64,000 nt of DNA from Moniliella sp. 'wahieum' (GCA_003971905.1 RSEE01000048.1:372001-436000); one strand, 5' to 3'. Counted from the first letter of the stretch, positions 999 through 63,368 are shown. Program-made: numbers and translations. The notes: a model not told the origin generated them from the sequence alone.

Positions 999-1856
999 GG
1001 CGAGGGTGATGGTAGGGTGTGTGCACCCCGCGGGGGGGGGGGCAGGGATTTATACACGAGGCAGCGCAGCCGCCTAGGGCTGTGCGCTGGGGCGGGGCCT
1101 CAGGCTGAGGCGCGGAGGAGGCCGAGCGCGAGAAGGGCAGCGGGGGGCAGATGGAGGCTGATCCAGCCGACCCGCGTGGCGATCGGCTGGGCAAATGATG
1201 ATGTCATTGGCATGCCCGTCTGAATCGCTGGAAAGAGAGCCGGCGGAGGGTGAGGGTGAGCCGGTGATGGACCGAGGAGGGACGCTCGACGGGTGGCGGG
1301 ATGTGCGTGTGATGTGTGTGATGTGTGTGACTGGCGGCTATCGCAAGCACGGGCCTGGCGGCGCGAGGGGCCATGCATGGTCGACGGGGCACCGAGGCGG
1401 GCCTACGCCTAAGGCCTAAGCGAGTGCGATGGCTGGAAGGCTGTGCAGCCACTCTGGCCATGTGCGCGGCGTCTCACGTGCGCGCCAGACGCACACGCGA
1501 TGGATATTGGATGGCGCAAGGAGTGCGTCTGCTCCACCCTCGCCTATCTCTGCCTCCGCTCCACCCCCGCCTCTCTCGCCCACCCGCACACGCCACACGC
1601 AGATGGGCGTCAACGGCAGAGGCAGAGGTCAACATGCCATGCCAGCACAATCCATCTGTCTCGTCACGCCCAGCGCCCCCGCTCAGATCATGTAGTGCAA
1701 CAACACGCAAGCGGCAGAGACACACGCCTGCCTCTCCGTCCGCTCATCAACATTCAACGTACTCAACCGCCTTGGCTCGCCGTGCTCATTCCTACGCGTG
1801 GCGTGGAGCACATCCAGGCACAGGCCGCTGCGAAAGTGCGCTGGCATCATGTGACG

Positions 1857-3970
1857 TCAGCGGCGCAACGAAGTGGAGGAGGACACGCGCGCAAATGGGT
1901 TGCGCGCACTCGGCACCCCCGGCCGCCCCGGCGGCGGCGTGGGGCGGATCCCATTGGGACTGGGCACGGTGGCCGACAGACTTCGGGAGAAAAGGGAGCG
2001 GCGGGAAAAAAGCGAGGGCGGCGAATGCTCCGTGGCAGGGAGGCTCGAGGCAGGGGTGGAAGCCAGCTCAGCGCTCGTGTTGGACAAGGACGAGTCCCTG
2101 GCTGGAGGGGCAGACAGCAGGCTGCTCCGGCTCCGTTCCCTCGGCCGCGAAAGCGTGAGCATACACTCCTCTTCGTCCCCGTCTTGTCCGAGGGGGAACC
2201 GATCCTCCTCCGCATCGGCAGAGGAGCGAGACATGGTCGAGTCACTTGCCCCCATGGAGGGCAGCGCCGGAGACCGACTGCGCTGCCGACTGGCAATCGC
2301 AGCCAGCGAACTGCTCCGTTGCAACGTCCTCCCAGCTGTACGCACACCAAACACATTCACCGGATCCGGGGCGCGACGGGACTGAGAGTGGGACGATAAG
2401 TGTGGCTGCGACTCGGATCCGACGAGCTGGCGAGAGGAGGGGTGGGACTGCGCGCCGCCAGTGCCCCTGGGATCCATGCTGACGCTGCGCGAAAACGTAC
2501 GACTGGTACTGACTTGGCGGGTCAGCGTAGATGGCCTTCGACGGGGCTCCTCGGTCACCTCACACGGTTGCTGCTCCTCTTGCAAAGCGAGCGCAAGCCA
2601 GGCCGCACAGGAACTTTGGCACTCGCCCGTCGACGGGGGTACGACTTGCGGGGACGATGGGTGGGTACGGGGCTGGTTCGCTCTTTGGTCGACGGCGATG
2701 CGGCGGCAGGAGGCGGGGCAAAAACACTTGGAGCGGAGGAGGTTGCACTGGCGGGGCAAGGCGCCGGAAAACGTAGGTTCTACCAAACTGCTGCAGAGCC
2801 ATTGCGCATCGTCCCGCTCATCTTCAGGCCCACGCTCGCGCCCTCCGGTGCCAAACGAGGATGCGATGGCTACCTCGGGACCCGAGACGTCCGAATCGGG
2901 TGGCATGGCGCAAAGCAAACAAAGCTTGTCTGTCAAATCTTCAAATCGGCTCGCCAGCGCCGCCGGAGCAAGCGAAACCTCCTCTTCAGAAACGTCCATC
3001 GTGTCGGGCCCCCGCTTGGTCGCACCACTCACTCGCCGCCGCACAACGGGATTGCTCAATCCTAACCATCGCGCCGACATGGACTTGCGCTTCCGTTTGC
3101 TCCCCCCCCAGCCGCGTGCGCCACAGGGGCGCTGGTCTTGCGAGTCAACCTGAGTCTCGTGCTGAGTTCAAGCATGGGCTGCGAATCGGCAGCAGTGGTG
3201 GAAACCTGGGATTGGGATGCTCCTCCCCCCTGGGAATCGTCTCCTCCTCCTCCTCCTCCTCTTCGTCACCGTGGGCCCAGGTGGTACCCATTCTTGGGAC
3301 TGGGAAAGATCAGGTTGGGACGCGGGCGTGTCTTGGGATTTGGTGGTAGCGTGCATACGCTGCTGCCACTGCTCCCATCTCCCTCGGTACTGCACACAGA
3401 CTACCTTCATGGCAAACAGCGTGAGGAGAATTTGTAGTTGAAACCCTAGAGAAAGGTTAGCGCGGGGGAAGGGGGGAAGCAGAAGAGAGAAAAGTACTCG
3501 CGACCCTCAATCGCACTGATCCATTGTCGCAACATCCCAGTAGATTGGCCACGGCAGGCAGAGGCGACAAACGTGCCAGGTGCCGAGGACAAAGCGTCGG
3601 TGATGATGGCACATTCGATGGGGTGGAGGGAAGGGGGGCACGGCTCAGCAAGGACAGGGCGCACATCCGGCAAGGCAGAGGGCGCAAGCTGCGCCAGCGC
3701 ACCCGGTACGACGGTGCGCATCTTGTGTGTCAGGGTGGATATGGGAACGAGGAGAGAAGCAAATAGGGGTGCTAGCGCGGCAGGCTCACCAGCCTCAACG
3801 GCCCGATCAACAGTCAGCGCGTAGCTGCGGCCCACTCGCGCAGCGGCGCTAGGCACTCGCCTCCCCAGAGCGTCAGGGCGTAGCGTCGCCGTGCCTCGGT
3901 CACCGCATCGCTTGTGGGGCAGAGCGGGCGTGCGCAGGCTCGAGGAAGTTGAGGCGGTAGGAGTATCCAT
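1857..3970 (-). CDS. SLD3: DNA replication initiation factor Sld3/Treslin-like (intron 3446-3497)
   Basis: Spliced and frame-corrected it reads EGRE|VQLQILLTLFAM, then RFEDLTDKLCLL and DDAQWLCSSLVEPTFSGALPRQCNLLRSKCF. These match the RE-QLQI-L, DRLCIW and FC--V--P-F---LP motifs of the Sld3 Cdc45-binding domain. Ser/Pro-rich C-terminal tail. Confidence 0.7.
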
Positions 3971-6939
3971 CCAAGGCGCCCCCCATCGACGGTTTGTGGT
4001 GGTGGCGGTGGCGGCTGGTCACGCGAGAAAGCACAGCGCGTCGCGTCCAACAGAACGCCCACCCGGTGGGCTCTTTTGTCTGAGATCTGAAATGCCATGC
4101 ACGCCCGCCTCGCGATTTGAAATCTGAAATGCCCCGCGAAGAAACGCCCGATTGATAGGTGTCACATGTCACGTGTCATGCATGTCATCGCTCCTCTTCC
4201 CCCACCACGGCATGGTGCGACTGCTATCCAAACAAGAACGGGGACATAGAAAACAGGAGTGAAGAGGGTGATGAAAAAGACTCATATTGCTGCTGGGTGG
4301 AGCACGCGCTCAGCAGGCCGCCCTCGCTCGGGGGCGGGGGGCGATTCCCTTCGGGTGGACGGGTCAAATATATTGAAGGAGAACACACTTGGGATGTTCA
4401 CAGACGGACATGAAAAGAAATTAAAGCTCCCTGTGGTTTTTGGTTGGCCCATTCGGGGGTGCTGTTGGAACCCAAGGCCACCACTGCCAGGGATATAAAA
4501 AGGAACACGCTCGGGTACCAAAAGACGACCAATTGAAAGGCGTATGTCCGGCCTCATGGCTTCCTTTCGGGATGTCTCTCAGAACCTGGCCCTATATAGG
4601 CCTCCTTTTCCACGAAATCAACAGAAGGTCTAGCTCCTATTACTAAGTCAGTACGATATATAGTGATAAGTCATCTTTCCTATGTGGGGTCGGAAGGCCC
4701 GACTTGTGGTGCCCAGCCAAGTCCGGAAGCCAGCTCATACGACGATCGTATGTCAAGGTGCACCGCTCCTCTTTGTTCTTCACGGAGGCGCTCTGTCACG
4801 GGCGCGGGGCCCGGGGGGCTTATTCAGGTTTGTGGGTACAATCCCTTAATAGGAGACCGACGGGCGACTCACGGTAGTGTCGGGCTTGGGCCAGTTGGTG
4901 GATCCGAGCGGAGTTAGGGAGGGGGGAGGCCTTTGAGCGTGAAGCCGAGGCGGCTGATGCAAATACGGTAAAGCTGGGGACGCACTGGATTGGTCCGTAG
5001 TAACGTGCCTGAAGCCTCCGGGGCGTAGGGACAGAGGTATGGAGGCAGTGGAGGACAAATACTGCGCCAGAGCTGGGAACAAGGAACGCTGATAATGTGG
5101 TTGGAAAGGAGCCCACGCGATAGGCCGTGGTCCCGGACTCGCTGCGGCTGAAGGAAGGCTCGGCGACTGGGCGGATGGAAAGCCGGAGTACGAGAGGTAT
5201 TGGAAGTTGAGGAGGCAGCTAAGTGGAGACAACGTTGCCTGTGTGTACTGAATCGAATGGCGGGAAACGGGCAGGGGTTGGGCAGGAAAGGCGGGAAGGG
5301 ACGAGAATAGAAGGTGGGAAAAGGATCCCCACCCCCCCAGGGGTATAGGCTAGATCAAACGGAAAACGATGCAATAGGGATGTAGAAAGGAAGACATGCC
5401 AAAGAGGGGTTGGTTGCCGCAGGCGCAACATAGAAGAAAGGTAAAGTAAGTGAGGCCGGGGCGATGACTATCGCGAAAAGGTATACCGGAAACTTGGTGA
5501 CCTCTCTCATTAGGCCGTCCGACTTTGACTTGAACGGGGGGCAACTATTGTGGCGAAGATGCATGGCCACAAGGCCACCACCGTACCAAAAATCATCGAA
5601 CTTGGTGGACTGCTGAGCGCGTTGTATTGGGCATGCTCCGAGAAGGGGGCTTAGCTTGGCTCAGACCATCTCAGATTCAACGCAGCCCGTAACACGCTCT
5701 CCCCCCCTTTCTCACTTTACCGCTGAGATCACCAAAGCAATTAAGAATGGTGGATTTGGCATTGATACACTACTGGATGCACGACACACGTTTTGCACCA
5801 GTACGCAGCTCAACAATCTTACAAGCTGGTAGAGCCCAGGAAACTGAAGCCATAATATATAGGTGCAGGGGTCCTTTGGTGAGAACCCGACCCAACGATA
5901 GTTATTGACATTGGCATATGCCTCTTGCGTTACATTGAGCCATCTCACTTTCGAACCGCTCCACCGTGCTTGCCCCTGTCTGAAGTGGTGTCTGATCTTT
6001 TGAGCCTCACTTCGCCTCACCTGTTGGCCTGTCTGAAGCACCAGATCTTGTCTTCTTGAATCGTTTGTTCACAACATGTTCCGCTATATGTGAAACGATT
6101 CGTCTCATCTGGGTCGCTACATGACAGTGGGAAAAGAGTTCTGGTTGAATAACAACGTGCAAGTTGGTTAGGACACAACGAGAATGCCCGGGTGATTGGA
6201 CGCGACAGATGTGTGGACGGCGAGGAAAGTGATGCACATGCCATTGGCAGTGCTGGTGATCTTCACTCTGGGAAGGAGTCTTCTGAGCTCTTGGGGAAGG
6301 AAGAGGGGTCCGAGGAAGATGGCCAAGAGAATGATGACGTGTGGATGGCCCCGCTGACGAAGGCAGAGACGAGCAGTACGAAATATCATACATATTGTCT
6401 GTTGAGCGGACGGGATCTCATCTCGGTGTGGCGGTCGGAATGGATATCCGTAAGCTTCTCTTTCTTCTGATGCAGAGGACGTGTCAGACGAGAATGAGGA
6501 GCATTATCTGAGCTCATCCCAAGCATCGGGCGTCGGGTGCGTGCATCTTCCCCCCTCGACCCTCAGGGCAACCTCGGGCGAGAAATGGAACCCACGGGAA
6601 GACCAGCGCCAAGCGCGATGAGAGTCATGATTTTCCGCCTTCAGTCCCTATAGCAACCACATGATGGTGAGCCTACAACAACTTTTGTCTGTCTTGGCCA
6701 TCATGCCGCTGCGACCTGGCGGGTAGTAATGCCAGGAATGCCAGTAATGCCGCACTCAATCCATATGACAGAGACAACGGGCTAGCGAGAGATGTCGTTG
6801 GTCCGTGACAAAAGTACAGCAACCAAATGGAAACAACAGGCGCAAGAGGGAATACGCATCCGGGCGCGGTCCAGGGAATATGCGGATGAACGTGGGTAGA
6901 GAATCTGAAGCGAAACGGATGAAAACAAAAAGAATTAAG

Positions 6940-9262: not shown

Positions 9263-9910
9263 TCTGGCTCTCTCTGACGGTGCGGCAAGCTATAGTCGAC
9301 GACTGCCTAACAGTGGTTGTCTCTGGCCGACTGCGGGGCTGACGCGCTCAGCGCTCACTCAGCGGAGCACAGCGCAGAGCAGCGCAGCGGAGAGAACGAG
9401 GGGACCGGGTCCAACTAGTAACTAAGGTCTAATTGGCCAATGGTGGGCTCGTCGGGGGTGCTGGACAGGCGGGTAGAAGCAGCAGCCGCACCACCACCTT
9501 TTGTTGTGAGTGGGGCAGGTGGAACATCGATACATAATAGAAGCTCTATCGAAGATTGTTGAAGCTTGTTGCTTTTGAATTCAAACAAAAGAGAACATAA
9601 GTATGTTTGGATTTGCCACTCTTCCTGTGTCGGGCGCAACACAGGCGTCTCGGGCGTGTTTTCCCGCCCTCTCATCGATCTCATCCACATGCAAGATGCA
9701 AGATTCCACGTCGAATAACACCCAGTTGCACCGTGCCGTAACCAGGGTGCAAGGTCCCAGCACGCCAGCATGCGTGGCCACCCATCGCTGTTGGGACGCA
9801 CGGTCCCGTACATAGGCCAGGGCGCGTGATCACCCTTTGCCCCTTATTGACCTCCGAAAAGCCTCCACGTGTATACTCAGGCTTGTTGGAACCCCGTTTC
9901 CTCTAGGTGT

Positions 9911-9945
9911 GGCCTAAGGCCTTAGCCTAAGGCCTTAAGGCTTAG
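9911..9945. repeat. 7-nt-period palindromic array (AGGCCT-W)n
   Basis: ggcctaaggccttagcctaaggccttaaggcttag. Confidence 0.8.
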
Positions 9946-10381: not shown

Positions 10382-11141
10382 GATTACGGATTGATTACGG
10401 ATTACGCGATTACGCGCGTTACGCGGTTACGCGATACGCGACTACGGCAATCAATTCTGCGCGAATCGATTTCGACAATCGAATCGATCAAGGCGCTCAG
10501 CCCGAGCGCTCAGCGATCGTTTAATCGGCAACCGGACTTACTGATAATCGGGGTAACCGGTAACTGGTAACCGGAGTGACATGTGACATGTGACATGCGA
10601 CAAAATCTCCAAGCAGACCGATTCATAAGGTAACACCCAGGTACCAAAAGCCATATGGCATGCGCGGTGGGCGTACGTATGTCAAAGATGCTCCAACATG
10701 TTCCCCCACGTGTGCTTAGCCTTGGCCGCCGTTGGCCGCCACCTCTCCTTCAAACGTCCCGGATCTAAGATCGATTAACGTTTAACACGTTAACGTTTAA
10801 CGTTTATAAACGTTTACTGAAACCCTCCCAGGTACGCCAGCCCCAAGATCCTTTAACAATAAGAAAAACGATCTCCGGGATCTCGCTGCTGTCTCAAGTA
10901 AACCTCAGCCGCCCTCCAAACCACGTCAGACTTTCGAGACGACACAGCGGGATCTCAGATCTCAGAATTCACATGTTCACATGTCAACAAACCGGTGTCA
11001 AAGTTGAGATGAAAGCGTAGTACGCCATATCAGGCCTCAGGGCGTCGCCGTGTAAGGCGACCACCGATTGCTTTCCATCATCTTTAAAACACCAGAGCCA
11101 GCCACGAAAAAGCATCAAAATTCAAGCTACAAGCTTCAAGC
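10382..11141. repeat. Mosaic of different 7-nt-period palindromic tandem arrays
   Basis: ttacgcg-type 10382-10447; ATCGAT 10464-10490; AGCGCT-C 10493-10515; ACCGGT-A 10552-10574; ACATGT-G 10576-10601; AACGTT-T 10775-10817; AGATCT-C and ACATGT 10951-10986; AAGCTT-C 11121-11141. The ORF track has no entry between 10348 and 11068. Confidence 0.85.
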
Positions 11142-11707: not shown

Positions 11708-13849
<2,142 letters not shown>

Positions 13850-13912
13850 TGCAGACGCAGAAGGCAGGCAGTCGTTGGTGGGATGGAGGCCGCTCGAGCC
13901 GGCTGGGACGCA

Positions 13913-14143: not shown

Positions 14144-14920
14144 CGCCGCTCTCGGCTGGCATGCCTGCCATGTCCGGTGGGTGGGGGCTATGTCCAGCGC
14201 GGGGAGGCGACGGCGGCTGTGCGCAAGTCCACCTGCCCTTCGGCCTCGTGACTAGTGAGGTCATAGGGCCATTCCTCAGGCCCTCAGGCCTTCAAGCTTC
14301 AGGGCCCACTTGCTGTTCCTGTACCGACGGCCCCGCCTGCCCGTCGGCTCGTCCGACCCCAACTTCCGCTTCCGTATAGAGTACACAGTATACGCTTGCA
14401 ACCACAGCACACACACGACGTCCAGACGCGAATCGCATCCTCTACCCCGACATGCGGCTGTCGATTCAGTCGCCACGCACCGCTGAGCCCGGCCCGTCGC
14501 CACCATGGCGCTTGCTCTGTCATGAATCTAGGGGGAAAGCGACGTCTACTACACTACGCACGGTTCAAAGCGCAAGGTGGAGCCTAAGACATGCGCGGGC
14601 CATGTGCATTTAAATGCAGGGGATGGGACCGGGCAGCCTCAAGGCAGGCGACTGGCGGCCAACGCTTCCACCACTACAGCAAGTGAGGCAGAGCAGGGCT
14701 GTGGGTCGAGCCCACATGGGTTTTTGGATGGGAGAAAGAGCATAGGAGGTGGCCACAGTGAGATTGCTGAGTTGCTCGCTGCCAGAGCAAGAGGGAGCAT
14801 AGCTCGGCACATCTCACACTAAAGGGGGTCCGGTCCAGGCTAGGCCAAGCACACACCAGAGCAGAGAGGTAGAAACGCAAGTGAGCCCTAGCCCCCGCCC
14901 CCCTCACACGACAAGGCCAA

Positions 14921-18772: not shown

Positions 18773-19744
18773 GGCGGGCGGACGGGCAGATAGGCGGAGG
18801 GGAGGCGGGAGGGGGAGGGGACGGGCGAGAAGACGAGGCGGGCGGAAGGCGTGCTATTATAGGCTGCGGGGGGCCGGTGGATCGGCGTGGAGGGCCAGGG
18901 CGGCCCAGGGCGGGCGGGCTGGCTGCCGCGCCGACGGCCCAGGCGGGCGGGCTGGGCAGAGCGTGAGAGAGCCGCGGGAGACGGGCGGGGAGGGAGGCTG
19001 AGTGGCGCGGGCGCTGGGCCGGGCAGCTGCCTGTCGGGCCCGGCCGGGGGCGAGTGTCCGCGCGCGGGGTGGGGTTGCCGGCGGCCCGTGCCCGGGACAC
19101 ACACTGGCCCCGTGCGGCGCCCGGGCGCACCAGCCGGAGAAGATGCGGAGACGGCAGGCGGCCAGCTGCGTTCAGCGGCGGTTCCGGCCCAGCCGGGCTT
19201 GGTGAACCCGAAGCCGACGCAGCCACGACGCAGGGATGGAGCGTGATCGGAATGATCGGGATGGCCAGTGCTTGGATGATCGAGATCTGATGCGGACGGC
19301 TGGATGATTGTGCATTGATTATTCACCCACTGCCGACTCACCAGACGCAGACGCTCCTCTGTGCTCGCGCCGGGGTGGGTGTGGCTTGGGCGGACATGGC
19401 TCTGTTACGTCATGCGTGAGGGGCGTGGGTGCGGGGTGGGCAGGGTGCCACGCATGCACCAGAAGAACCCCGCAGCAGACTCCTTGAGTAAGTGAGTACT
19501 TGTATTCCCGTATTCCACACCGAGATTCAGCATTCAGCGCTCAGCAAACACGGTGGCCATCTACGCTCTAAGATCTAATGCCACACGTCAATTTGAGCTG
19601 CTGCCCCATCATGCATCACCCGTCACGGATGGCATTCAATCTCCATCCTCGTCTGCGCGTCATCTCGGCTGATCAACGCCGCAGCCGGCGCCTCCACAGC
19701 GCACCCCGTGCGCCTTTTGGTCGTGCATCCTGCCTCTCCTCCCC

Positions 19745-23544: not shown

Positions 23545-23662
23545 GCGGTCAAGCTTCAAGGTTGAACTGGCGCCGCGGGCGCCGCTCATGCACATGCACA
23601 TGCGTGGCTGTTCGGGTTTGGAATGGGTTTCTCACCCTCTTTCCCAGCCAGTCATCTTGATG

Positions 23663-23702
23663 CTTGAAGCCTGAAGCCTGAAGCCTGAAGCCTGAAGCCT
23701 GA
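23663..23702. repeat. 7-nt tandem repeat (GAAGCCT)5, a degenerate AAGCTT-G array
   Basis: cttgaagcctgaagcctgaagcctgaagcctgaagcctga. Confidence 0.85.
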
Positions 23703-24225
23703 TGAGCCGCGCCAGTGTGCATCCTACGTTTCTTATCTGCGTCGGAACCAATGCAGTCCTTTATGCACGGTCTCCTCTGCTGCCCTCCACGTGCCGACGG
23801 GACAAGGGGGGCGCGTGGTGCAAGCTGTGAATCGTTGTCTGCTCCACTCCGCTCCTTCCGAAAATAGGGGAGGGGGAGCGATTGTTACGAGTTCTTGTTT
23901 TTTTTATATTGTGTTGGGCTATCGGTTATTGATCGTTGGCCCGGGTCGACCCCGGAAGCTACTGAATACTATGTGCATCGACCTAAAGTTTCGGTAGATG
24001 GGGTGAGGCCTGAGGGGAGGATTGGGGGTGTGTGGTACAGGGAAGGCGGGTGGCGGGTGGCGGGTGGCACGTGGAGCGTGGGGGGTACTGAACGTCATCG
24101 TGTAGCCCAGACAGACGGGTGCAAAGCAAGGTGGGAGAGGGGCAAGGTATGCATTGCGGGGCGTCCGAACAAGGATGTGTGTGGCTGGTAGGATGAGGAT
24201 GAGGATCCGTACTGCGAGTCGGTGC

Positions 24226-29005: not shown

Positions 29006-30113
29006 GTTTAGCTTACATGGCCCCCGTGGCGCATGGGCGGCCAGGACGGTTTAACTCCATTGTGCGCATCGGCCCGTCGCCCTTCGGTTGCTTGTCCGGC
29101 GCTCCATCCCCATCCCCACCCCACTTTGCGCTTTACGCTTTACGCTTTTGGGCGTGATGCTTTTGTGCCCGGCGCTCGCTCGCTGAGGATGCTTGGCTCG
29201 TACGCTACTTCCTCGGGGGCGCTGCTGGCACAGCACAGCACAGGAAGAAAAAACGCACTGTACCACGCTGGTGCTGCATTTGCATTTGCATTTGCATTTG
29301 CTTTGGCACGACCTTTTCGCAGTCGTGAGGCAATCCATGGGATGCCTACCGACATACCCATAATCACTACGTTGCCAGGTGTTTGGCTTGCACCTGGTCC
29401 CCCCCGGCGCGTATGGTTCATGACTTGTTCGACAGACCTGGGCTGGCACCATAGCCTGAGCGGTGTTGATCCTGAGCGGTCGACGAAGAGTAGCTGCGGC
29501 TTTTGTTCGTACCACAGAACGGATCGACATGCATTAGACTTGGGGAGGTTGCATCCCTCACTACATATGCAGATGTTACCGTGTCGCTTATAGCACGCGA
29601 TGTTGCCTATATATAAGAGTTCCGACGTCACTCAAGAGAAAGAAAATAGTGCTTGTATGCCTCATTCCACAGCAACATGGCTGGTGGCTACAGATGAACA
29701 CAGGACAACCAGGACGATACTGAGTAGGCCGCGGCTGCAGGCAACAGATGCCGGTTATCAAGCATCGCGTGTGCTGTATTATGTACCAAGCACACAAGCA
29801 GAGAGGATGTTGGGGGAAGTGGTTCAAGTTCTCGTGAGGATTGGCATCGCATATATACACGCATTGTACTGTAAGCGAAGACAAGAGAGAGGCGATACGG
29901 TTCGACGCGGGAGAGAGTCCGCAGGCTCAAGGGGCGCACGCTACTGCCAAAGAGGCATAATACATTCCACCCTCTTCCAAATCTCTGATTCCCGCGCTTG
30001 GCCCACAGCCTCCGTTCCCATGCTTCGCGTCAGGGCCTGAAACCAAAAACACAAGCGAGAGAGGAGGGAAGAGGTGAGGGGGCTACAAACAGATGAGAAA
30101 GGGAGGGGTGACA

Positions 30114-31721
30114 CTAGGCGCTTGTCTTGGCCCGCCCTCCTTCCCACGAAGCATCATAATTGGATACAAAAAGGAAGGGCAGCACCAAGAAGCAGATCAA
30201 CACGCTGGCCACCGAGCCACCCAACAAGGAACGTGCCATGGTGATGTGGTGCGGGGTGGCATAGGCGTGCTGGCCTTTGGTACGGTTGGTGTGGTTGGTA
30301 TGATGCGGTGGCCGATCGCCTGGGTTGGTGGTATTGGTAAGCCAGGGGTTGCGCTGGTCAAATCCATCGTAAAAGAGCCGCTGCAAACTCAGGTTGGCCG
30401 TGTAGACGGCAAAGTCGAGGTGGGTAGTGTTGGCCAAAAAATCCGCCGTGTGCGAGGCTGGAACTGACCGCCAAGTCAGTGGCGAGCGCCGAAACAAAGT
30501 TGGCTCCGCGATCCAGATGATTGGACCCTTGCCATTGAGCCTGACCCGACGTGGCCCCCGTCCCAATATCAAACAACGCCAGCGCATACCCCACTGTGCG
30601 GGTCCGAAAGCGGGCCACAACGTCGGTGCCATTGTTGTGCATCACGTCCCGCCGGGCATACGCTGGGACCTTGGTCGTGTTTTGGTGGATGCCGTAGGGC
30701 CAGGTATCGTACGTGTCCGTCGTGCTGGTGTTCACATAGGGTCGTTGGGACGTAAGCCAGGCCCAGGAGCCCGGGTTGCCAATCCAAAACCGCACGTTGC
30801 TATCATAGTACTTGGTCTTTTTGAGCAACGCATACCGTTGCGCCCCCTGGCCGCCCAGCGAGTGGCCAGCAACAACGACCTGGTTCAGGTTGGGAAAGGT
30901 CGTGTTGTCAAACAGGGTGTCAAGCAGCGCATCCAGCGCCTCGTAAGCGCTTATCTTGTGTTGCATGGGCGGATTGCGCGCCAGCCCGCCCATTTGCCAC
31001 AAGGATTTTTCAAAGCACAGCCAGGCCGGCAAGCACGATCCGGCATTCATGTCGTCCATGTTGAGAAAAGCCGGACCGATGATACCGACCGAATCGTTGG
31101 TAATTCCCCACCCGTTAAAGGGGGGAATGTCTGGGTGGCGACGATGATCTTGGCACTGTACATGTACGCTGCATACTTCCAAATGTCCCGTGGCTTGCCA
31201 GGCAGAACAACGACAAAGCGCTTGATTTGGGTAGGGTCGGAATACGCTTGGTAATAGGGTAAGATGCCCGACTCGTTGTGGTACTTGTTCCACACTCTCA
31301 AGCTCGTGTTCAGTGTAAAGCCAGCAACGTCGGGGAGAGCTTGCCAGCCAGACGCTTGGCTACCGTTAGCGGGCGCGTCCACCGGGTTGGCCAGATTGGC
31401 GTTCCAACTGTACTGAATTCCATCGCCCGCAACCGACTGGCCCTGGACGTACGCGAGATTGCCATTCGCCGTGCTCTTGACCCCAGGAAGGTTGTCTGCC
31501 AGCTGGGCTGCTTCTGCATAGTGGCCCTCTTGCATGTCGGCCGTGATGGGCGCCTGCTGGGCATCCGAGGGAGGAAAAGCTGTGTTGGCGCTGGGAGAAC
31601 CAGACCCGGTGCCAGCTGGATCTTGGCGCGCATCTATCCGCCCGGCCACGGCACCTTGTTGGGCCAGGGGGGCAAGGAGTGCTATTACGCACGACGACCA
31701 AAGGAGCAGGTTGGGACGCAT
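30114..31721 (-). CDS. Secreted, C-terminally anchored alpha/beta-hydrolase-fold protein
   Basis: Signal peptide MRPNLLLWSSCVIALLAPLA; VLPGKPRD; nucleophile elbow VVVAGHSLGGQGAQRYA; IGNPGSWAW; C-terminal TM LLGGSVASVLICFLVLPFLF. Confidence 0.75.
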
Positions 31722-34437: not shown

Positions 34438-34895
34438 GGGAGGGGGGGAGGCGGAGGGGGAGGGGAGGATGCGGAGAAGGAGGAGGAGGAGGAGGAGGTG
34501 GTGGTGGGTGGTGGTGGTGGTGGTGGCGGATGGATGGATGAACGCGGCCGCCACGCAGCCGCTGTGTTCGCCTGCCAGCTGCTGCCGGCTGCCGCCTGCT
34601 GCCGCCCCATTGTCCCCGCTGGGGCTGGCGGTGGTGTACGTCAGCACGCCTGCCGCCCCGCACGCAGGCCAGCCTGCAATTTCAAAAGCAGGTGGCTCCC
34701 TGTCGAGTGTGACATGTGGCATGTGACTAGTGACGTGCACCGTCGCACATCACATGTGACACGCCCACTTCACATGCTCCCTTCGCAGGCCACATGCTCG
34801 CAGCACCGCCACGCTGCCCATCGCGAGGAGCGCCGCCGGCGGGGTCAAGTGACTGTCCAGCGCCGAAGAGCACCGGCAGCGATCGCCCCAGCGCC

Positions 34896-38053: not shown

Positions 38054-38286
38054 ATTGACTGAAGCTGTCCACCGATGCGTCCTCGGTCGTTTTGGCGCCG
38101 TTCTGCTTATGTGTGGTAACATGGTACACGAGCAAAAATATGGAAAGGCCGACCCAACCCACATGCTACGACAACCGACCGACCATCTCAAATGTACGCT
38201 TCGTTCCGTCCGGGAGCCAAACGAGAGGGGGATGAATAGATTGTGCATTGCCGAGTAGCCGATCGGCGGGGGAGACACGTTACGCG

Positions 38287-41200
38287 TTAGGGCGGAGCAG
38301 GCTCTGGCTCCAACTCTTCGCCCAGCAGCCACCCTACGCCGCGCGTCAGACTAAACCCGCCGTGGGGCACATGGAATGGGATCCGCCCGGCCTCGCGCCG
38401 CGGCCCCGCCTCGTCTCCAGAGTGCAACACCGACCGCACCTGTTCTGGAGCGGTAGGAGGAATGGTAGTGGAGGAGGAGACCGTGCTGGCCCTCGGCATA
38501 GCAGGTGCAAGCGAGGCAGCACCCGCGTCTTGGCCCTGGGCCAGTGCGGCGTTGGAAGCGGGACCGGCGCCTGGATCGTGGCTCGGGCCGCGGAAGAAGA
38601 ACCGAGCGGCGCGGGCCGCATCGTGGCCCCCCTTTTCCGATAACGCGGCCAGCTGCTGGCCCACCAGCCCGCCCAGCCCACTTGCCGTCTCGCGTAACCC
38701 GCCCGGCCGCGGCGCAGGCAAGGGGACCGAGAGCCCACGGAGGAAGCTGCTACCGCGTTCGGCCGGAGGCGCCTCGGGCGGCATGGCCTCCAGCCCCCAC
38801 GCCTCCTCCTCGGCGGTCGCGTCAGCGGGCGTATCGGCGGCGGCCGGCGGCGTAGCGGCGTGCGGCGTGCCAGCAAAGGCCGGACTCAGCTTGCCCGCAC
38901 TGACCAGCAGGGCAGCCAAGGGCGTTGCCGCGGCCGCGGCCGACGCATACTCGCCCACCACTGCTGGCACGCCGAGGCCAGCGAGCAAGCCTTCGCCCGT
39001 CGGTGCGGCGGCGCTGCCGGCGCAAACAGCATGCCCGCGCGCTCGTCGGCATCCAGGGACATGATGGCTTGGTCCCACACCCCGCGCCAGGCACGCAGCA
39101 AGCGCGCCACCTGCTCCTCAGGGCAGAGGCTCAGTGCTTGTCCCAACAGACCCAGCTGCGCCAAAGGTTCTTCCCAGGCCGCTTGCTTGCCCAGCTGATA
39201 TGCCACCTTCCACGCCACCTCCTGCGCAGGCAGCAGCATCCCCCGTGCACTCTCCTCCGTCACACAAGACGTGCCAGCCGACCTGGCTTGGGCCGCGCGC
39301 GCACGTTGTTGTAAGCCGTGCACCACCTTCAGCACCCGTTCTGCCAACCCGGCGGCCCGGGTCCAGTCGGCCGCGGCCATCGCCGCCTCGGCCAGCATGG
39401 CCAACACCTGCGCCTCAATCACCGGTTTGCCCACCTTGCTTCCGCTCGGTTCCGGTAGAAGAGCAAAGAGAAGGCGTCTGCTGTCGCACTTGCTTGCTCT
39501 GGCCCCAGCTGCGGCGCACGGTTGAGTTGCACTGCCAGGCCAACCAGGGCGTCCGACGCTTTGTATGCATCAGCTTGATGTGCCACCACTCGTGCCACCA
39601 GCTCGACGCACCCAGCCACACAGTTCGCCCCCGCGGGTGTTCGGCCACCGCGCGAATCTCCGCGGGCCGTATCAAGCCAGGGTGCTCGGACGAAGGCAGA
39701 CGATACGCGCCCAACTTACTCGTTGCCACCAGGAACGCCTTTTCCGCCGTCAAGGTCGGCGTGGCGGGCAGCACGTCCAATCTGATACAGTGCAGTGTGC
39801 GTTAGTACCCTCTCACCTTCCCCCCCACGCAACGAACTAGAGACAACAGCAATGCAACCCAGCACGTACATTTCATCCGCCAGCTTCATTGCGCCACTGG
39901 TCAAGTGGTGGAGGTGGCGTCGTCGTAGCTACTGCGCGCCGCAGCGAGCACCACCGCTTCGATCTGGGTAGAAGTGAGGGCCGGGCAGTACGACGCTGGC
40001 GAGGCCAGTAGCGATCCAAACAGGTACAGCCCGCCCGACCGCAGGAGGCCCAGAAGGGCTACCTGGTACACTTCGGTCCGCGTCAGGGGCGCAAACAGAT
40101 GAGGTTCGGGTTGGGATTCGGGATCAAGTTCGGGAGGTGGGGCGATAGACTGTTCGTGGCCCCAGGGGTCCTCTCGTCCTCCGCAGCAGCCGTAGGGACA
40201 TCCAACAGCGCGCTCAACAAGCTCCGCCACGCGCTTTCCTGCGCTTGCTCTGAGCGGGCAAAGCTCCCGGTGACCAACGCATATAGGTGCTGGAATTGGA
40301 CTTGGCGCGTCGAGGCGGTCAGGTACCATGCGAGGGGCATGTGCGACGCGTCCCACGCCTGCAACACCCGCAGCGCAGCCAAGTGCGAGCCCAACGTGGC
40401 GAGTGCCGAGGCGGAAGGAAGGGGGTGGGGGTGGGGACGGGGGCGGGGGCGTGGGTACGGAGGTGGGCAAACAGGCTCTGTGCATCGGGCAAGACAGGTG
40501 GATTAGGCAACCGAGGCGAGACGCCCAAACTCTCTAGAGCCAACTGGACTTGTTCCACTGACGGCGAGGGGAGGCCAGCGGGGCCCGCTGCTGCGACACA
40601 GCGTGCTCGACCATCGCCACCGCCGCCGGGTCCGAGCGCGGGGACGTGTAGGCACATGCGAGCACAACGAGGGGTAACGCGCCTTCCAGCGGCTCTGCAA
40701 GCGACGGACACGCCAACAGTGCCCACAGAAGCGAGAAGGCGTCTTCAGCTGGGAGCGTCGGCCCAACAGGAGGTGCAGCCGCGTCGGAGCGCCGAGCCCA
40801 GCGGGCAAGGGTGAAAAGGATGCCGATCAACGTGGCCCGCACCGCTGGTGCGGTGGGGGCCGGGGGGCGCGAGGCCAGCAGCGTCGCCCGCTCTGCCAGC
40901 TGGCCCAACAGAGGGACCAAAACAGTGACCAGAAAGGAGTCCAAGGGTGGCGGAACGGCCTGAAGCAGCTCCATCACCATGTCGGTCGACCGGATGCGGC
41001 GTCCCTGGCAAGCGCCAGCTCCAGCTCAGGCAGCGTTGTTGGCCCGACTCCAGGACCGACCGGGGCCAAGCTGAGGACATGGAGAATGGCAAACGATTTG
41101 CTCAGTAGAGCCAGGCCGTGGGCCGCTTGGCCCGCCGAGGCGAGACTATGCGGGCCGCGGGGAGCAACGTGGGCACTGACCGCGGCCAACACGGCGGCTG

Positions 41201-47742: not shown

Positions 47743-49505
47743 GGTGGGAAAGGCAGGGCGGAATGGAAGGAACGAAGGACAAGGAAGGGACAGTTAAACT
47801 GGAGACAGGGCGAAGCAAGACAGAGGTCAGTCAACATCATCGCGATGGGCGGTGGCGTCCGGTGCGAGGTGGGGCACGGAGGGATGCGGAGAGGAGGCCA
47901 GCAAACTCACCGATAGTGGGCCTCGAAGAAGAGGCGCTGGTGGGTTAGGGTCGGGGGTGTTCAATTGACTAGGGGCATGGCGCGGCGGGGGCGGGGTCGA
48001 GCGGGGGGCAAGGCAAAGAGCGTGGAGAGGCGAGCTGGGGATGGTAAAGAACGTGAGGGTGGGAGAGACGCGAGGAGGGCAGCGGAGGTGGGCGAGGAGG
48101 GCGACAAGAAGGTGGGCAGAGAGGAAAGAGAGCCACACGAGAGCGACGGCCAGGGCGGAGGAGGCGGAAGGCGCTGGCACAGAAGGGCACAGAGCGCACG
48201 CGAAAGACCGCCGCGGCAGAAACCAACACAGACAATCCCCCGCCAGACAGCGGACGGGCAGATCTCTGACGCAGAGACTGAGGGCTGCCTGAGGCTCAGC
48301 CTGAGCGCGCTGAGGGTGAGGTGCTGAGTCCTGGCTCCGATCGATGCTCTTCGATGCTGCGATGCTCATCGTGAACGCGTGAGCGTTGCTCGCCTGCTGG
48401 TGCTCTGCGAACATCCGACGGCAGTCGCTGGGCGCGCTCTCTGCTGCTCGGGCTGGGTCACACGCCTGTGCCGCTCCACGACAACAACACCCGGCCGACC
48501 GAGCACTGGGCACCTGGGCTGCCCCGGGCGGATTGCAGGCACAGCGCCAGTGTCGCCGATAGCTGTACTTGCACTGTGCCTGTCGGATCGACGCCATGTG
48601 TTAGTCCCGATGAGCATCTCGCCTGTGTCCTTCGCCCGGGGCTGCTCGGCGTATTCTCACACTGCTCGGCGCCACTGCCCCACCCCCTAGGGCGTAACTT
48701 AAAACACGTAACACGCGTCGTCATCGATGATGTATAATCCAGGATCGCCGTTTGCTCGCAACATCACACACTCGTCACGCGCGTGTTCCCGGCGGTCACG
48801 AGGTCACTCGTCACTACACTGGTATGGCACACAGCATGGCGCAAGTGCAGCACAGGAATTATCGGTCACGCACGTCAGTGTCACGTGTCACATGTCACAC
48901 CGCCTCACCTGGGTGCGTCCCCAGCATGGCACATGTCAGTCCTCCACGGGTGTGCAATTTGAAACAATTTGAAACAACGTGAATCCTGAATGGCCCGGCC
49001 GAGGTATGAAACGGCGGGGTCTTCAAGCTTCAAGCTTTCTCAACGCTGTCCAGAGGCCACCGCGGACACAAGTTGGCGACCACGGCGGATGAAGCTTGAA
49101 GCTTGAAGATTGAAGGGAAGAAAGGGCGCAACCTGCCCAACAGAGCACTTTCGCCCCATCCCGTGCCTGTCCGCATAACGCCCTACTGCTCAGACTGAGT
49201 ATTGAGTGACTAGTGAGGTTCAGGCCTCGTTGATCAAACTCTGACCGGTGACTGGTGACCGATGACCCAAGATTGCATTCCCGACATTTCAAAGTTCCTG
49301 ATTTCACAGTTCAGAAATGCTTCCTAAGCTGAAACACTGAAAGCGGTTTCCCATTCAATGAGGACAAAGTGCCGCAGCATGCAGTAGGGTTGGCAGTCCA
49401 CTGCCCCGGGCGATCGGCGTGCCTTCTATTTTCGTCCGTAGGGTTGGCTCGGTGGTCGCTAGCTTTGCGCTCGATCCTCGTCCCTCGACTCTCCAAACCC
49501 ACATC

Positions 49506-56275: not shown

Positions 56276-56709
56276 CGCAGGCAGGCTAGCCGATGGCAGA
56301 AGACGCCGCCGCTCTTCCCAACCGCCAGCTTGGGGCGGGAGCCTGTGCTGCTGCTACAAGAAGCCGCCCGTTGCAGTGGCCAAAATACCTCGTCGGTGCA
56401 ATCCCCCCCGGGAGAGAAGGTACGCTTCCGCCCGCTGCGGAACCAGGCCGTGCTCGTGTGGCGCAGCGCAATTGAAACAACACCAACCCGACAGCATCAC
56501 ATGTCACATGTGATAGCCGCCATATGCGGCACGTGACATGCCACGCATGGCCTGCTTTCAACTTTCACTCGTGTCCGCCCCAGAGCCCCCCAGAGCCCCG
56601 CCCAATCATTAATCACAGCACCTGCCTGCTGCTGCCCGCACCGATCCAGCCACGCTTTTCGTGCCCTCGCTCCGCGCGTCCAAGGCGCAGACCCAGTACC
56701 CCACGCCGC

Positions 56710-57700: not shown

Positions 57701-57883
57701 TGATGCTTGGGTATTCCGTTTGAGTGTCTTTGTTTCATGCTACTCCCTGACGGCAAGTGTCATGCAGTGCGCACCTGCCAACATCAATGCTCTTATGCAC
57801 ACTCACTGCTTGTTCCTCCAAAATGGCTTCGCGCTTCGCTTCCAAAATGCCCTTATTTCTGATGGACTGCAGTGTGACCGGTG

Positions 57884-58152: not shown

Positions 58153-58355
58153 CTGCCCTCGTATGCAATCTGCACCGAAGCGGTCGACGACCAAAGCGTC
58201 CAAATTTAGAGATCGCAGCGTGGATCTGCTCTTTCAACTTCAAAAAAATGCATTTGCGTCAGCGCATCCGAGTTCGTACGTTCATCGATGAGTTCGACAG
58301 CAAGCTGTCCGCCACCAGCGGCCTTTCGCCCAGTACCCAGGGTGGGAGCCACAAC

Positions 58356-59296: not shown

Positions 59297-60261
59297 CGCC
59301 GACGCCGAAAAACAGAGCAATAAGACAAACACACACTCCTCCGCCGTCGCCAGCCGCCGGGGAGCCCGCAAGCGCAGAAACAAGTAACCATCACCTCCGC
59401 TCGCGCGCTACTTCCCACCAGTGGATTTGCCTCCTGGAGCTATGTATCAACTGTGGCCCGCTTCCACCTTACCTGTTTTGAGGGACCAACAATCGTGACA
59501 GTGAGAAAGAGACGACGGAGATGGATAGGTTAGGCGGAGGATGGCGGACCGGGACAGGCCCCGTCACTCTTTTGAACCACCGAGACGGCCGGCCGAGTTA
59601 TCCGTCCTGAGGCGGCACACATACAGGGTAGTGCGGCGTGTACCATCACATCGTCACTTGGCCCAGTCGTTGACGCATAGCTTGACAGGGCAGCCCAGGA
59701 CAGGTGCCGGTGAGGAGACAACCAGTGGCTGTGACGACAATGGACCACAGGATTTTCCGTATCCCCTCACGCATCATGTGAGGATCTCCCCTGGTAATCT
59801 ATCGTAGCACTATCTCTCTTTCCCCCTCTCAGAGTTACTAGTTCCTGCCGACTGTTGTGCGGCGGGCGGGGGGCATGGAGAGGGGAGATGAGGCTCTTGA
59901 GGCCTGAAGTGGGATGACGCGGACGCAGCGCGAAAACGCGACGCGTGCGCGTCGTCTGCTGGGCCACTGGTGCGTACCTAACTGAGCTACTGAGTACTGA
60001 GTTACCGAGTCCTGAACTCGGCGATGTAATTCCGCTGCAAATTTGCCGTCCAGCGCCCAACGACAGCCTCTCGCCCCCAGCTCTTGCACGCTCCGTTCCG
60101 CCCCGGCCTTTTTTTTTTGCCATCAGGCCGCCGTCTCGCCATTTTTTTCCCTCCTCCCCCCGACCAACCACCTGGACGCGACTTGAGAGCGGCGGCCCGC
60201 TGGCAGACGGTTATCTGCCCTTCCATCCCCCACCCACACCCGTCTACCCCACCCCACCACC

Positions 60262-62281
<2,020 letters not shown>

Positions 62282-63368
62282 CTTGCTCGGCCTGCCCGCT
62301 GGGGGTCCCAGTGAGCTGAGATGGAGCAGCTGTGGTCCCTCACCGAGTCGACGGCGATCATCAATCAGCATTGGTCATTTGCGTGGTGTTGGCACCCATA
62401 GGAACACGTTGGGAGCTTGTAGCTGGATGCCTGAGCCGCAAGCAGGTGGACCCAGTGAGCTAGTGCGGTCGGGTTGGAAGGGTGTACTGCTTAACAGGGA
62501 TGTCGTGACAGGGGACGCGTTTAGCTTTATGTTGTACGTTGACCTAAGCCCTAGCGTGTAAAAAAACTGGCGTGCAACCCGTCTTGACTGCTGCCGGCTG
62601 CTGCCGCCGCTGCTCAATGGGGCCAGACGGGGGTGTTGTGCAGATTGGGCGCTCTGTTTTCGCTCTGTTTTCGCTCGGCTCCGACCCAGTGCTGAAGCGC
62701 TGAGCGTTAGCGCTCCGTGCTGCGTGCTGCGTCGCTCTGCCCCCCCGGCTGAGCCTCAGCACCCACACCACGCCCATCCCCCTCCCGACACTCGCCCCGG
62801 GCGAGCGGCGAGCATGGAGCAGCGCACCGCACCGCGTCAGTGCAGGACGGGACGGAGAGGCAGGCACACGGCCCCCCGCCCCCCCGGGCACTTGGGATGC
62901 ACTACACTGCCCTCGTCCGACCGCGATCGGCGTAGGCCGGCCGCATGCGGAGCAGGCACCAGCACGGCGCCCGTGTACGCCTGCTTCCAGCACGGAGGCA
63001 GCCGGGTCCGACAAGCGCCGCCACGCAAAAGCCAAGCCGTGCGGGCGCCCGGCAGAGGGTGCTCGGCGGTGGCCTTCACGGTCACCTGGAGCGTGAAGCT
63101 TCAAGCTTGGCGAGAGGGGGCGAGCCCTTGGGTGCTGCGGCGGAGATCTGCTCGGACCACTACCACCCATCCCTCCCTTGCGCTTCTGCCCTTCCCCTGC
63201 CCCCCTCCGCCCCCTCCGCCCCTCCCGCCCCCTCCGCCCCTCCCGCCCACACTCTCTTCACCCGCTGCGGCTGGCCGCACTCCGCCCACAACTCCTCTCC
63301 CTCTCTCCCTCGCCTTCTCTTGCTCCTCCTCCCTTGCTCTTTATCTCGCTCCTCTCTCTCTTCCGCCC

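Follow-up and report, generated by a model that had tools for sequence, protein, structure and literature searches.

The canonical footprints of Tc1/mariner transposons consist of a duplicated TA and of a palindrome that is contributed by the transposon ends and is the same at every site. The known footprints that arise through hairpins vary in length and carry deletions, and Transib and RAG generate a 5-bp duplication. In the reactions of hAT, Transib, MULE and RAG, hairpins form on the flanks; host nucleases of the Artemis type open them, and NHEJ then joins the ends (PMC5499845). A TWA duplication is reported for PIF/Harbinger and, for the NuwaII elements from two basidiomycetes, the duplication of a TNA preceded by C and followed by G, with terminal inverted repeats (TIRs) that start with GG (PMC4482050). 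Finally, intergenic heptamer arrays are described in bacteria, Xanthomonas and Nostoc, with one unit per family (PMC4692102).

The 64-kb stretch of DNA analyzed here (the window) contains short sequences obeying a single rule: two TNA trinucleotides enclose a 4-nt palindromic core (TNA-pal4-TNA), the minimal form being the 12-mer TNAxy-y'x'-TNAxy, in which y'x' is the inverted copy of xy. An earlier note had described them as period-7 arrays of palindromic hexamers starting with A and ending with T (A..T hexamers); this observation is confirmed and is sharper than first described. Like the Xanthomonas and Nostoc arrays, they are intergenic and repeat in tandem every 7 nt, with a copy number probably driven by slippage, but here the rule extends across many units, has TNA at its center and has the 12-mer as probable founder state. 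They share with the P-nucleotide footprints of hAT, Transib, MULE and RAG a direct duplication flanking an inverted copy of the adjoining flank (36 of 58 12-mers, see below) and, presumably, a homology-free joining. They differ from them by the lack of any element in the window, by TNA standing at one end of the 5-mer and by an inverted part that is always of 2 nt and on one side; the variable P length, use of either flank and frequent small deletions of the hairpin type are not seen here, the 4-nt spacer being the only one clearly enriched. As in PHIS transposons, the target is TNA, whose middle base is free and follows the background in our case. However, TIRs beginning with GG predict GGCC as sole core, whereas 13 cores are found here, without C/G flanks and without any element in the window. 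The fixed length, the palindromic nature and a central base of the odd palindrome that takes either complementary value recall Tc1/mariner footprints, from which our sequences are distinguished by cores varying from site to site and by TNA in place of the TA duplication. No published description of the TNA-pal4-TNA rule was found in a full-text literature search.

Sequence Analysis

The analysis of the loci covers this one 64-kb window. The host DNA is that of a basidiomycete, GC-rich and without a close sequenced relative. Period-7 arrays were located with TRF, then inspected in sequence. Dinucleotide shuffles served as null model, the maximum being taken over 100 shuffles. Gene support was obtained from a Pfam scan of all 408 stop-to-stop ORFs of at least 90 aa, codon-bias gene maps being too insensitive; Pfam-supported ORFs make up 32.4% of the window. 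As a grid of the type "k-mer duplication plus p inverted bases" was swamped by low-complexity and coding repeats, locus-level tests were used instead. The lineage comparison drew on 80 loci from other fungi, totalling 935,793 bp.

Results and Discussion

Period-7 Repeats Follow a TNA-Specific Symmetry Rule

The window contains 37 perfect period-7 tracts of at least 14 nt, and perfect tracts of at least two copies are far more numerous for period 7 (37) than for periods 8 (8) and 9 (3). Period-7 tracts with at least 7 matches are 29, vs. about 4 in shuffles. In 14 of the 37 perfect tracts, the unit is a palindromic hexamer plus one base, and the hexamer is of the A..T type in 11 of them. The three others are GCCGGC-T at 34581, CGGCCG-G at 38838 and CACGTG-T at 48878. 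A hexamer recurring at distance 7 is found seven times for the A..T type and never for the C..G, G..C and T..A types (shuffle means 0.0–0.2). The earlier note saw no arrays of these last types; some palindromic heptamers that are not of the A..T type are nonetheless present, in numbers compatible with chance.

The rule is specific to the TNA center. The TNA-pal4-TNA 10-mer with the same N on both sides is seen 34 times, as compared to 1.92 in dinucleotide shuffles, with a maximum of 7 over 100 runs. The equivalents centered on ANT (0 vs. 1.63), CNG (10 vs. 9.16) and GNC (12 vs. 8.47) are all at chance level. When TNA-k-TNA is scanned for k = 0–10, enrichment is confined to k = 4, with 86 sites vs. 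27.4 expected whatever the spacer sequence, and 34 vs. 1.8 for palindromic spacers. The values are 30 vs. 26.6 for k = 0 and 5 vs. 6.75 for k = 2; k = 6 (3 vs. 0.3) is not clearly enriched. The symmetry rule put forward in the earlier note is genuine. Both TNAs have the same N in 34 cases and complementary Ns in 9 (inverted N, 2.1 expected), any other combination being absent, which makes 43 10-mers, distributed over 36 loci. The earlier note had reported about 25 arrays. Rather than eleven of the 16 possible palindromes, 12 are used as cores in direct form, with TCGA solely in the inverted-N form (13 in total), and AATT, ATAT and TATA are unused among the 36 loci. Away from the loci, neither TNA-centered 7-mer palindromes (139 vs. 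162.5 expected) nor A..T hexamers (146 vs. 155.1 expected) are in excess, and palindromes of 6–12 nt are not enriched overall in the window.

The arrays listed earlier are found at their positions by TRF and sequence reading, those near 10493, 19526 and 62696 being present but imperfect. TRF locates ACATGT-G in 3.9 copies (10576..10602), ACGCGT-C in 3 (32385..32405), AAGCTT-C in 2.4 (49021..49037), AAGCTT-G in 3.7, including a 19-nt perfect tract of 5+7+7 (49090..49115), AGATCT-C in 2.3, followed by ACATGT with a 2-nt spacer, i.e., period 8 (10951..10986), AAGCTA/AAGCTT-C units (11123..11141) and an irregular array of AGTACT-G units (59981..60015). Inspection of the sequence gives 14-nt tracts of AGGCCT-A (1407..1420) and AGCGCT-C (9344..9357), as well as AACGTT-T units comprising a 12-mer, a 17-nt tract and an inverted junction at the end (10775..10816). 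An inverted N also terminates two ACATGT-C units (56497..56513). N alternates in AAGCTT units at 63094..63108 and, between A and T, in the AGGCCT array at 9911..9941, which thereby contains perfect 10-nt palindromes and has one unit shorter by 1 nt. Isolated perfect 10-nt palindromes have GCGC (30944..30953, inverted N) or TCGA (48721..48731 and 58282..58291) as core, and single 10-mers have CTAG (14248..14258) or GGCC (59898..59907).

The Loci Cluster Upstream of Genes and Are Probably Lineage-Specific

The loci avoid supported coding DNA: only 2 of the 36 overlap Pfam-supported ORFs, each within the 5' portion of a stop-to-stop ORF, upstream of its domain. The loci are clustered upstream of genes, including those of HSP70, RPS21, pantoate ligase and CTP synthase: 12 lie between 9.3 and 11.1 kb, and 6 are located 82–603 bp upstream of the RPS21 ORF. 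Events would be concentrated in promoter and intergenic DNA probably because this DNA is accessible. About 2.7% of the non-genic TNA sites of the window bear such a locus (36 loci vs. 1278 other sites). In the 80 other fungal loci, the signature is absent: there is no k = 4 excess, and the spacer is palindromic in 60 of 703 TNA-4-TNA sites (8.5%), which is near 1/16.

The 12-mer Is the Smallest and Probable Founder Unit

The smallest unit, the 12-mer, corresponds to TNAxy plus 7 further bases, in which xy is first copied in inverted form and TNAxy is then repeated. With 1.7 units, it is also the commonest state of the loci. Such 12-mers are found with the cores GATC (4079..4090, N = G; 19567..19578, N = A), GGCC (11030..11041, N = C; 24004..24015), AGCT (14290..14301; 23549..23560), TGCA (19607..19618), CGCG (38278..38289, N = T), CTAG (49205..49216) and TTAA (56604..56615); another one, with core GCGC, follows two copies of TCA-GCAT at 19525..19545.

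The boundary of the 12-mer is asymmetric. In 12 of the 25 single direct loci, the extension of the 10-mer measures exactly 2 nt and is confined to one side (chance 0.081, p = 1.6e-7); in 20, it reaches at least 2 nt on one side (chance 0.15). When all non-low-complexity 12-mers made of a 5-mer W, the reverse complement of its last two bases and W again are considered, W is TNAxy in 36 of 58, and the TN end of the 5-mer essentially never appears as an inverted copy. In 11-mers of the 4+3 form, A occupies the pairing position in 43 of 50, with T preceding it in 37 of those 43. By contrast, the other bases are used as available: N is S or W in a 28:8 ratio in loci vs. 946:332 at background TNA sites, and the 13 cores approximate the TNAxy background (0–6 observed vs. 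1.1–3.3 expected per core). This argues that the palindrome is templated by the flank and not by a transposon end. No extended target consensus is visible by eye around the 12-mers, and their flanks share no matching microhomology.

A One-Step Event Could Generate the Arrays

On balance, we lean toward reading the arrays as mutational scars of a lineage-specific, TNA-anchored event adding 7 bp in one step, followed by growth through slippage and decay through point mutation; it is part of this reading, and the best explanation of the data, that the arrays are not selected elements. The founding site would be a pre-existing TNA followed by any two bases xy, and a single step would add exactly 7 bp, converting TNAxy into TNAxy-y'x'-TNAxy by a direct 5-base duplication and a 2-base inverted copy of xy. 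From such a product, the palindromic hexamer AxyY'X'T arises necessarily, with TNA at the odd dyad center, and as the new TNA again precedes xy, an event at either TNA repeats the unit and leads to arrays of 5+7k. The lack of palindrome excess outside the loci is counted as support for this one-step origin. At the molecular level, a staggered double-strand break may leave TNAxy on both ends, one of which would gain two palindromic (P-type) nucleotides, the ends being joined without homology. P-type nucleotides result from a hairpin-sealed end opened 2 nt off its tip, and hairpin/NHEJ chemistry is known to yield a short duplication together with palindromic nucleotides, which we count in favor of a scar. 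Once at least two units are present, ordinary slippage could alter the copy number, mutated units included, and point mutations, notably CpG transitions, would erode the arrays. As putative agent recognizing TNA, one may think of a transposase, a domesticated nuclease or an activity resembling that of a topoisomerase. Neither an enzyme nor a transposon nor a broken intermediate for the +7 event was found in the window. The data fit the suggestion of the earlier note that a mechanism generates the arrays, with the TNA sites of promoters and intergenic DNA as its target. They do not single out any of the specific routes that it named (fold-back, nuclease, transposase), and its interpretation as a whole is partly supported.

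Several points speak against the scar model. The proposed break is asymmetric, with TNA at one end of the 5-mer and the inverted bases at the other end only, which a symmetric dimeric transposase should not produce. Hairpin opening is usually variable in length, yet neither k = 2 nor k = 6 shows a clear enrichment. Three to four identical units require repeated hits or slippage from the 12-mer, each of which is postulated, and the 9 inverted-N copies fall outside what the proposed step accounts for.

Known reactions were also worked through on paper. The product could not be derived from symmetric cuts at TNA in general, and symmetric 3-nt cuts at TNA with fill-in predict TNATNA (k = 0), which is not enriched. 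Hairpins spanning TNA, of the piggyBac type, predict period 5 or an inverted N, and those offset by 1 nt, of the hAT type, predict an ANT center. Fill-in of Top2 4-nt or Spo11 2-nt ends predicts +4 or +2, respectively, and double nicks by Top1 did not reproduce the product. Replication slippage or template switching with microhomology was rejected, the flanks not supplying it.

Alternative Explanations

Among the alternatives, the loci might be excision footprints of a cut-and-paste transposon duplicating TNA, PIF/Harbinger-related (PHIS, especially NuwaII). Between its two TNAs, each footprint would hold two nucleotides from each of the inverted terminal repeats, and arrays would grow as elements repeatedly enter and leave open promoter DNA. 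With two terminal bases from each repeat, the spacer would invariably be 4 nt long and palindromic, as seen, and a TNA with a free N is the duplication reported for NuwaII (PMC4482050); TIRs beginning with GG would moreover account for the GGCC core of 5 loci. The 13 cores, however, reflect the TNAxy background rather than one or few transposon ends, the 2 bases past the second TNA repeat xy, which a transposon end cannot do, and C before and G after TNA are not the rule. The promoter position agrees with the target choice of DNA transposons; PIF/Harbinger excision is mostly precise, which speaks against footprints. In addition, the window offers no transposase domain among its 408 ORFs (Pfam), and of 63 candidate TIR elements with a 3-bp duplication, 4 have TNA, which is chance level. 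We regard such footprints as unlikely. Polymerase template switching during repair or replication, i.e., fold-back synthesis as put forward in the earlier note, would dispense with a dedicated nuclease and use the quasi-self-complementary TNA as a turning point. The odd dyad center that is always TNA, and the presence of both direct and inverted N, as if strands paired across an N:N mismatch, would be well explained. Nevertheless, all the versions that we worked through lack, in 12-mers, the microhomology for the return switch, the flanks being mismatched; a G:C-flanked center, which should serve equally or better, is unused, and the constant 2-nt length is not accounted for, so that we give this route a similarly low probability, if anything lower.

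It is quite improbable that the loci are merely heptanucleotide microsatellites born by slippage, with A..T palindromic units favored by TNA-triloop hairpins that stabilize expansion intermediates. Period 7 is over-represented (37 vs. 8 and 3 for periods 8 and 9), folding gives arrays a 5-bp stem topped by a TNA triloop, and non-palindromic heptamers expand too. Slippage nevertheless copies existing bases and cannot make the two new inverted bases, y'x', of the 12-mer, the commonest state; neither this nor the enrichment of TNA alone, over CNG, GNC and ANT, and of the 4-nt spacer alone can be accounted for by slippage, which also gives no reason for the excess of same-N over inverted-N copies (34 to 9). 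The earlier view that plain slippage is insufficient is thus upheld. Furthermore, the stability of these hairpins is low (-2.8 to -6.8 kcal/mol, z-scores of -0.8 to -2.9), and no fold is predicted for the longest array. Selected cis-elements, either binding arrays for a protein reading TNA every 7 bp, which the earlier note had envisaged as the cause, or structural promoter elements, are very unlikely in our opinion. They would fit with the clustering upstream of HSP70, RPS21, pantoate ligase, CTP synthase and other genes, with neighbors resembling known types of sites, such as CACGTG beside ACATGT units at 4167 and 48878, and with identical perfect 10-nt palindromes each found at two places. 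But the four bases between the TNAs vary freely over 13 background-like cores, only T and A around a free base being common, most loci have two TNAs only, decayed copies are common, and an asymmetric 12-mer boundary is meaningless for a binding site. Finally, an assembly or sequencing artefact is extremely improbable, as the loci avoid coding DNA, contain point-mutated units and follow a base-specific rule matching no known mode of sequencing error.

If the scar reading is true, this is a rare case where the birth of microsatellites is legible from sequence, one step turning any TNAxy into a repeat seed, and many unrelated-looking repeats are explained under one rule. It would also point to a break-and-repair or transposase activity, specific to the lineage and directed at promoters, which would be a strong source of regulatory variation. 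More speculatively, and with doubts on our part, this could be an undescribed and highly active process of the lineage, in which an activity restricted to TNA breaks accessible promoter DNA, reseals it with a fixed +7-bp signature, gives rise to new heptamer microsatellites and keeps rewriting promoters; the agent would then be a nuclease or transposase, either new or domesticated, that cuts asymmetrically and belongs to no known transposon family. The signature is simple and can be screened for in any genome, and the mechanism is directly testable. The Ustilago maydis heptamers ATTCACG/ATTCGTG, mentioned in the earlier note as a parallel, found no support in a literature search at title level.

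Decay and Later Slippage

Traces of decay are frequent. Among the 52 non-palindromic TNA-4-TNA cases, 32 retain one of the two pairs, when about 10 are expected (about 27 chance TNA-4-TNA sites, 37.5% of random 4-mers having exactly one pair). Within arrays, the variants CCGG>CTGG and CCGG>CCGA are present: according to TRF, three ACCGGT-A units have a CpG transition in the middle one (10552..10574), and ACCGGT-G, in 3.7 copies, also contains CpG transitions (49242..49267). An ACATGT-C unit is followed by a CACGTG variant unit at 4160..4178, TCA units have CGTG and CATG as cores at 48878..48899, and TGA units have successively CATG, CATG, CTAG and CGTG, before an inverted-N 10-mer of core CATG, at 34708..34761. 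AGCGCT units are imperfect at 62696..62712, and a degenerate array of the TTA+CGCG type, with GATTACG/GATTACGC units, is located by TRF at 10382..10446.

Mutated units appear to have expanded in turn. The TTA unit of (TTACGCT)2.9 (29129..29148) is one base off the core CGCG. The longest arrays, (TGAAGCC)5.4 and (GGCGGGT)3.4, are non-palindromic, which indicates that slippage does operate, but only after the birth of the unit. The former (23665..23702, TRF), listed among the AAGCTT arrays in the earlier note, has a TGA unit one base off the core AGCT, probably expanded after mutation.

Results and Discussion

An earlier note had located between genes short period-7 arrays whose unit is an A..T hexamer, i.e., a palindrome beginning with A and ending with T, plus one base; TRF reports these arrays and direct reading of the sequence agrees. 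There are 37 perfect period-7 tracts of at least 14 nt, as compared with 8 and 3 perfect two-copy tracts of periods 8 and 9. In 14 of the 37 the unit consists of a palindromic hexamer and one further base, the hexamer being of the A..T class in 11 of these 14. An identical palindromic hexamer is found again at distance 7 seven times in the A..T class (shuffle means 0.0-0.2) and never, over the whole window, in the other three classes.

Seen from its other dyad, the unit is TNA followed by a 4-nt palindrome, the core. With the same base as N on both sides, the 10-mer TNA-xyy'x'-TNA is observed 34 times against 1.92 (maximum 7) in 100 dinucleotide-preserving shuffles of the window, whereas its ANT, CNG and GNC analogues stay at chance (0 vs 1.63, 10 vs 9.16 and 12 vs 8.47, respectively). 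When two TNAs are separated by k nucleotides, with k from 0 to 10, enrichment is seen at k=4 only, both for any spacer (86 vs 27.4) and for palindromic ones (34 vs 1.8); the counts are 30 vs 26.6 at k=0, and 5 vs 6.75 and 3 vs 0.3 for palindromic spacers at k=2 and k=6. Palindromes as such are not enriched in the window, whether of 6 (1023 vs 1068.5), 8 (261 vs 283), 10 (88 vs 72.8) or 12 nt (17 vs 19.4). The TNAs around a palindromic 4-nt spacer carry the same N in 34 cases and complementary Ns in 9, any other pair being absent; the complementary, inverted-N class TNA-core-TN'A is itself enriched (9 vs 2.1 expected). Three of its perfect 10-nt palindromes each occur at two places, with core CATG at 34750 and 56504, TCGA at 48721 and 58282, and GGCC at 9915 and 9928. 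Among short period-5 tracts, 11 of 23 have as unit a 4-nt palindrome plus one base (TCGA+A, CATG+C, GGCC+T; e.g., 10477-10487), a modest rise over the ~31% expected.

The 43 10-mers group into 36 loci. Of these, 25 hold a lone direct 10-mer; period-7 identity runs on past it by exactly two bases at one edge and stops at the other in 12 of the 25 (chance 0.081, p=1.6e-7), and reaches two bases or more at one edge in 20 (chance 0.15), so that the sequence is TNAxy-y'x'-TNAxy, where y'x' is the inverted copy of xy, or its reverse complement. An unbiased search for a word W, the reverse complement of its last two bases and W again returned W=TNAxy in 36 of 58 matches. With the alternative 4+3 parse, A stands at the pairing position in 43 of 50 matches and is preceded by T in 37 of those 43, and both T and A are thus needed. 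Once period 7 is subtracted, the sole possible pre-site is TNAxy. The formal operation from TNAxy to TNAxy-y'x'-TNAxy, a gain of 7 bp made of a direct copy of five bases and an inverted copy of xy, is demonstrated at the level of sequence; whatever lies beyond it we infer. As the new TNA again precedes xy, a second event at either TNA yields the same heptamer unit, and the perfect 19-mer tract at 49090 (5+7+7) fits such repeated +7 events.

At N, C or G is found in 28 loci and A or T in the other 8; TNA sites of the background, taken outside both genes and loci, give 946 and 332, respectively. Thirteen cores are used, about as the TNAxy background predicts (observed 0-6, expected 1.1-3.3), and the three unused ones, all AT-only, have the lowest expectations. 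This background-like usage is evidence against filler from fixed transposon ends; the palindrome is derived from the flank. Neither TNA-centred 7-mer palindromes (139 vs 162.5) nor A..T hexamers (146 vs 155.1) are in surplus in the rest of the window, outside the 36 loci, and hence there is no sign of half-made intermediates.

The window is fungal DNA of ~60% G+C with intron-split genes. Pfam scans of every stop-to-stop ORF of at least 90 aa (n=408) identify, on the - strand, a DUF7783 gene (8251-9207), HSP70 (11880-13261 and beyond), RPL13, a mitochondrial carrier, a protein O-mannosyltransferase (19748-22511), PET191, an AhpC-like protein, Sec39 and SUV3 (52129-54807), and on the + strand RPL32, an M16 peptidase (25636-29002), a Zn2Cys6 factor, a CCHC protein, RPS21 (49333-49812), pantoate ligase and CTP synthase. 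ORFs antisense to the HSP70 exons (+ strand, 11769-13279) match NAD-GH (PF10712), a known antisense-of-HSP70 artefact family, and hence are not a real gene. Pfam-supported ORFs cover 32.4% of the window and are overlapped by 2 of the 36 loci, both within the long Zn2Cys6 ORF, in its 5' portion, upstream of the domain. The loci are clustered: the stretch at 9.3-11.1 kb that separates the DUF7783 gene (5' end) from HSP70 (3' end) contains twelve, and six precede the RPS21 ORF by 82-603 bp. HSP70, pantoate ligase, CTP synthase and the mitochondrial carrier have further loci upstream. This placement would fit promoter and intergenic DNA that is presumably accessible.

Identity of the mannosyltransferase is only 66% with its top database match and ~50% with named basidiomycetes, which come from all three subphyla and among which Ustilaginomycotina rank first; the organism is thus a basidiomycete that lacks close sequenced relatives in collections. 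In 80 fungal loci from metagenomes (935,793 bp), chosen via the mannosyltransferase alignment, the spacer is palindromic in 60 of 703 TNA-4-TNA (8.5% vs 1/16 expected), k=4 shows no enrichment relative to k=5 (703 vs 672), and the density of palindromic TNA-4-TNA is 0.064 per kb vs 0.53 per kb in the window. Judged against these 80 loci, the signature is lineage-specific. Full-text literature searches returned no description of the TNA + 7-bp rule, and gave no support to the Ustilago maydis heptamers that the earlier note had mentioned.

Decayed copies are common: among the 52 TNA-4-TNA with non-palindromic spacer, 32 keep one complementary pair and 20 none, while the ~27 chance sites should contribute ~10 and ~15, respectively (calculated from random 4-mers, which keep one pair in 37.5% and none in 56%). 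ACCGGT arrays carry CpG transitions (CCGG>CTGG, CCGG>CCGA; 10559-10565, 49249-49262), which hint at cytosine methylation in this genome or simply at CpG sites that mutate readily. At 23665 lies the longest array, (TGAAGCC)5.4, whose unit differs from TGA+AGCT by one base; its expansion must therefore postdate that mutation. It is predicted not to fold (-0.6 kcal/mol), and the stems predicted for simple palindromic arrays, 5 bp with a TNA triloop, are weak (-2.8 to -6.8 kcal/mol). Slippage thus acts on the arrays, but hairpin formation, according to these predictions, would neither set array length nor account for birth.

From this one 64-kb window, we consider it somewhat more probable than its contrary that the loci arose as one-step, TNA-anchored break-and-join scars. 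Both ends of a break would retain TNAxy, one of them would acquire two palindromic nucleotides, and homology-free joining would then give TNAxy-y'x'-TNAxy, to be followed by slippage on existing units and by decay. The cut is inferred to be asymmetric relative to the symmetric TNA; none of the symmetric-cut models worked through yields the 12-mer. The one-step model leaves the inverted-N class unexplained. We regard the scars as footprints of repair or excision from which microsatellites start, and rather doubt that the agent behind them is categorically new. Flank hairpins are made by hAT, Transib, MULE and RAG and opened by Artemis-type host nucleases, the break being repaired by NHEJ (PMC5499845); this known chemistry combines, as proposed for the scars, palindromic-nucleotide gain with a homology-free join, but hairpin footprints are normally variable whereas the scars always have 2 nt, on one side only. 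The TNA target is reminiscent of the PHIS superfamily, in which PIF/Harbinger duplicates TWA and the NuwaII group, whose reported hosts include two basidiomycetes among others, duplicates TNA in the context C|TNA|G and has TIRs beginning with GG (PMC4482050). Neither the hairpin-forming families nor the PHIS superfamily fits fully.

A PHIS transposon footprint would share the TNA target as described in that source, but it is unlikely: fixed ends beginning with GG predict the single core GGCC where 13 are found, the loci show no C/G preference beside TNA, no TNA-flanked TIR element stands above chance in the window (4 of 63 candidates), and the Pfam scans of the 408 ORFs reveal no transposase domain there. 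Polymerase template switching, which would dispense with a nuclease, is quite unlikely too. Slippage favoured by hairpins is similarly unlikely, as it is opposed by the predicted folding of the longest array and of the palindromic ones. Little credence is given to cis-elements maintained by selection, and practically none to an artefact.

Other repeats are also present. In the SUV3 ORF (- strand, 53045-53250), which encodes a conserved mitochondrial helicase, a 21-bp unit repeated 10 times with 89% matches forms an in-frame 7-codon minisatellite. Just past the SUV3 5' end (55152-56082), long ORFs without Pfam match are overlapped by large TTTGG/CTTTGG-rich tandem repeats, one of an 84-bp unit x2.9 and one of a 278-bp unit x2.0, and a 137-bp unit is tandemly duplicated with 89% matches at 57883-58152, downstream of the pantoate ligase ORF. 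Finally, two long hexamer arrays have related units: ATCTGC x16.8 (25332-25432), which either precedes the M16 peptidase gene or lies at its start, and CTGCAT x16.7 (36910-37039), within the ORF of the Zn2Cys6 factor, in its C-terminal part.
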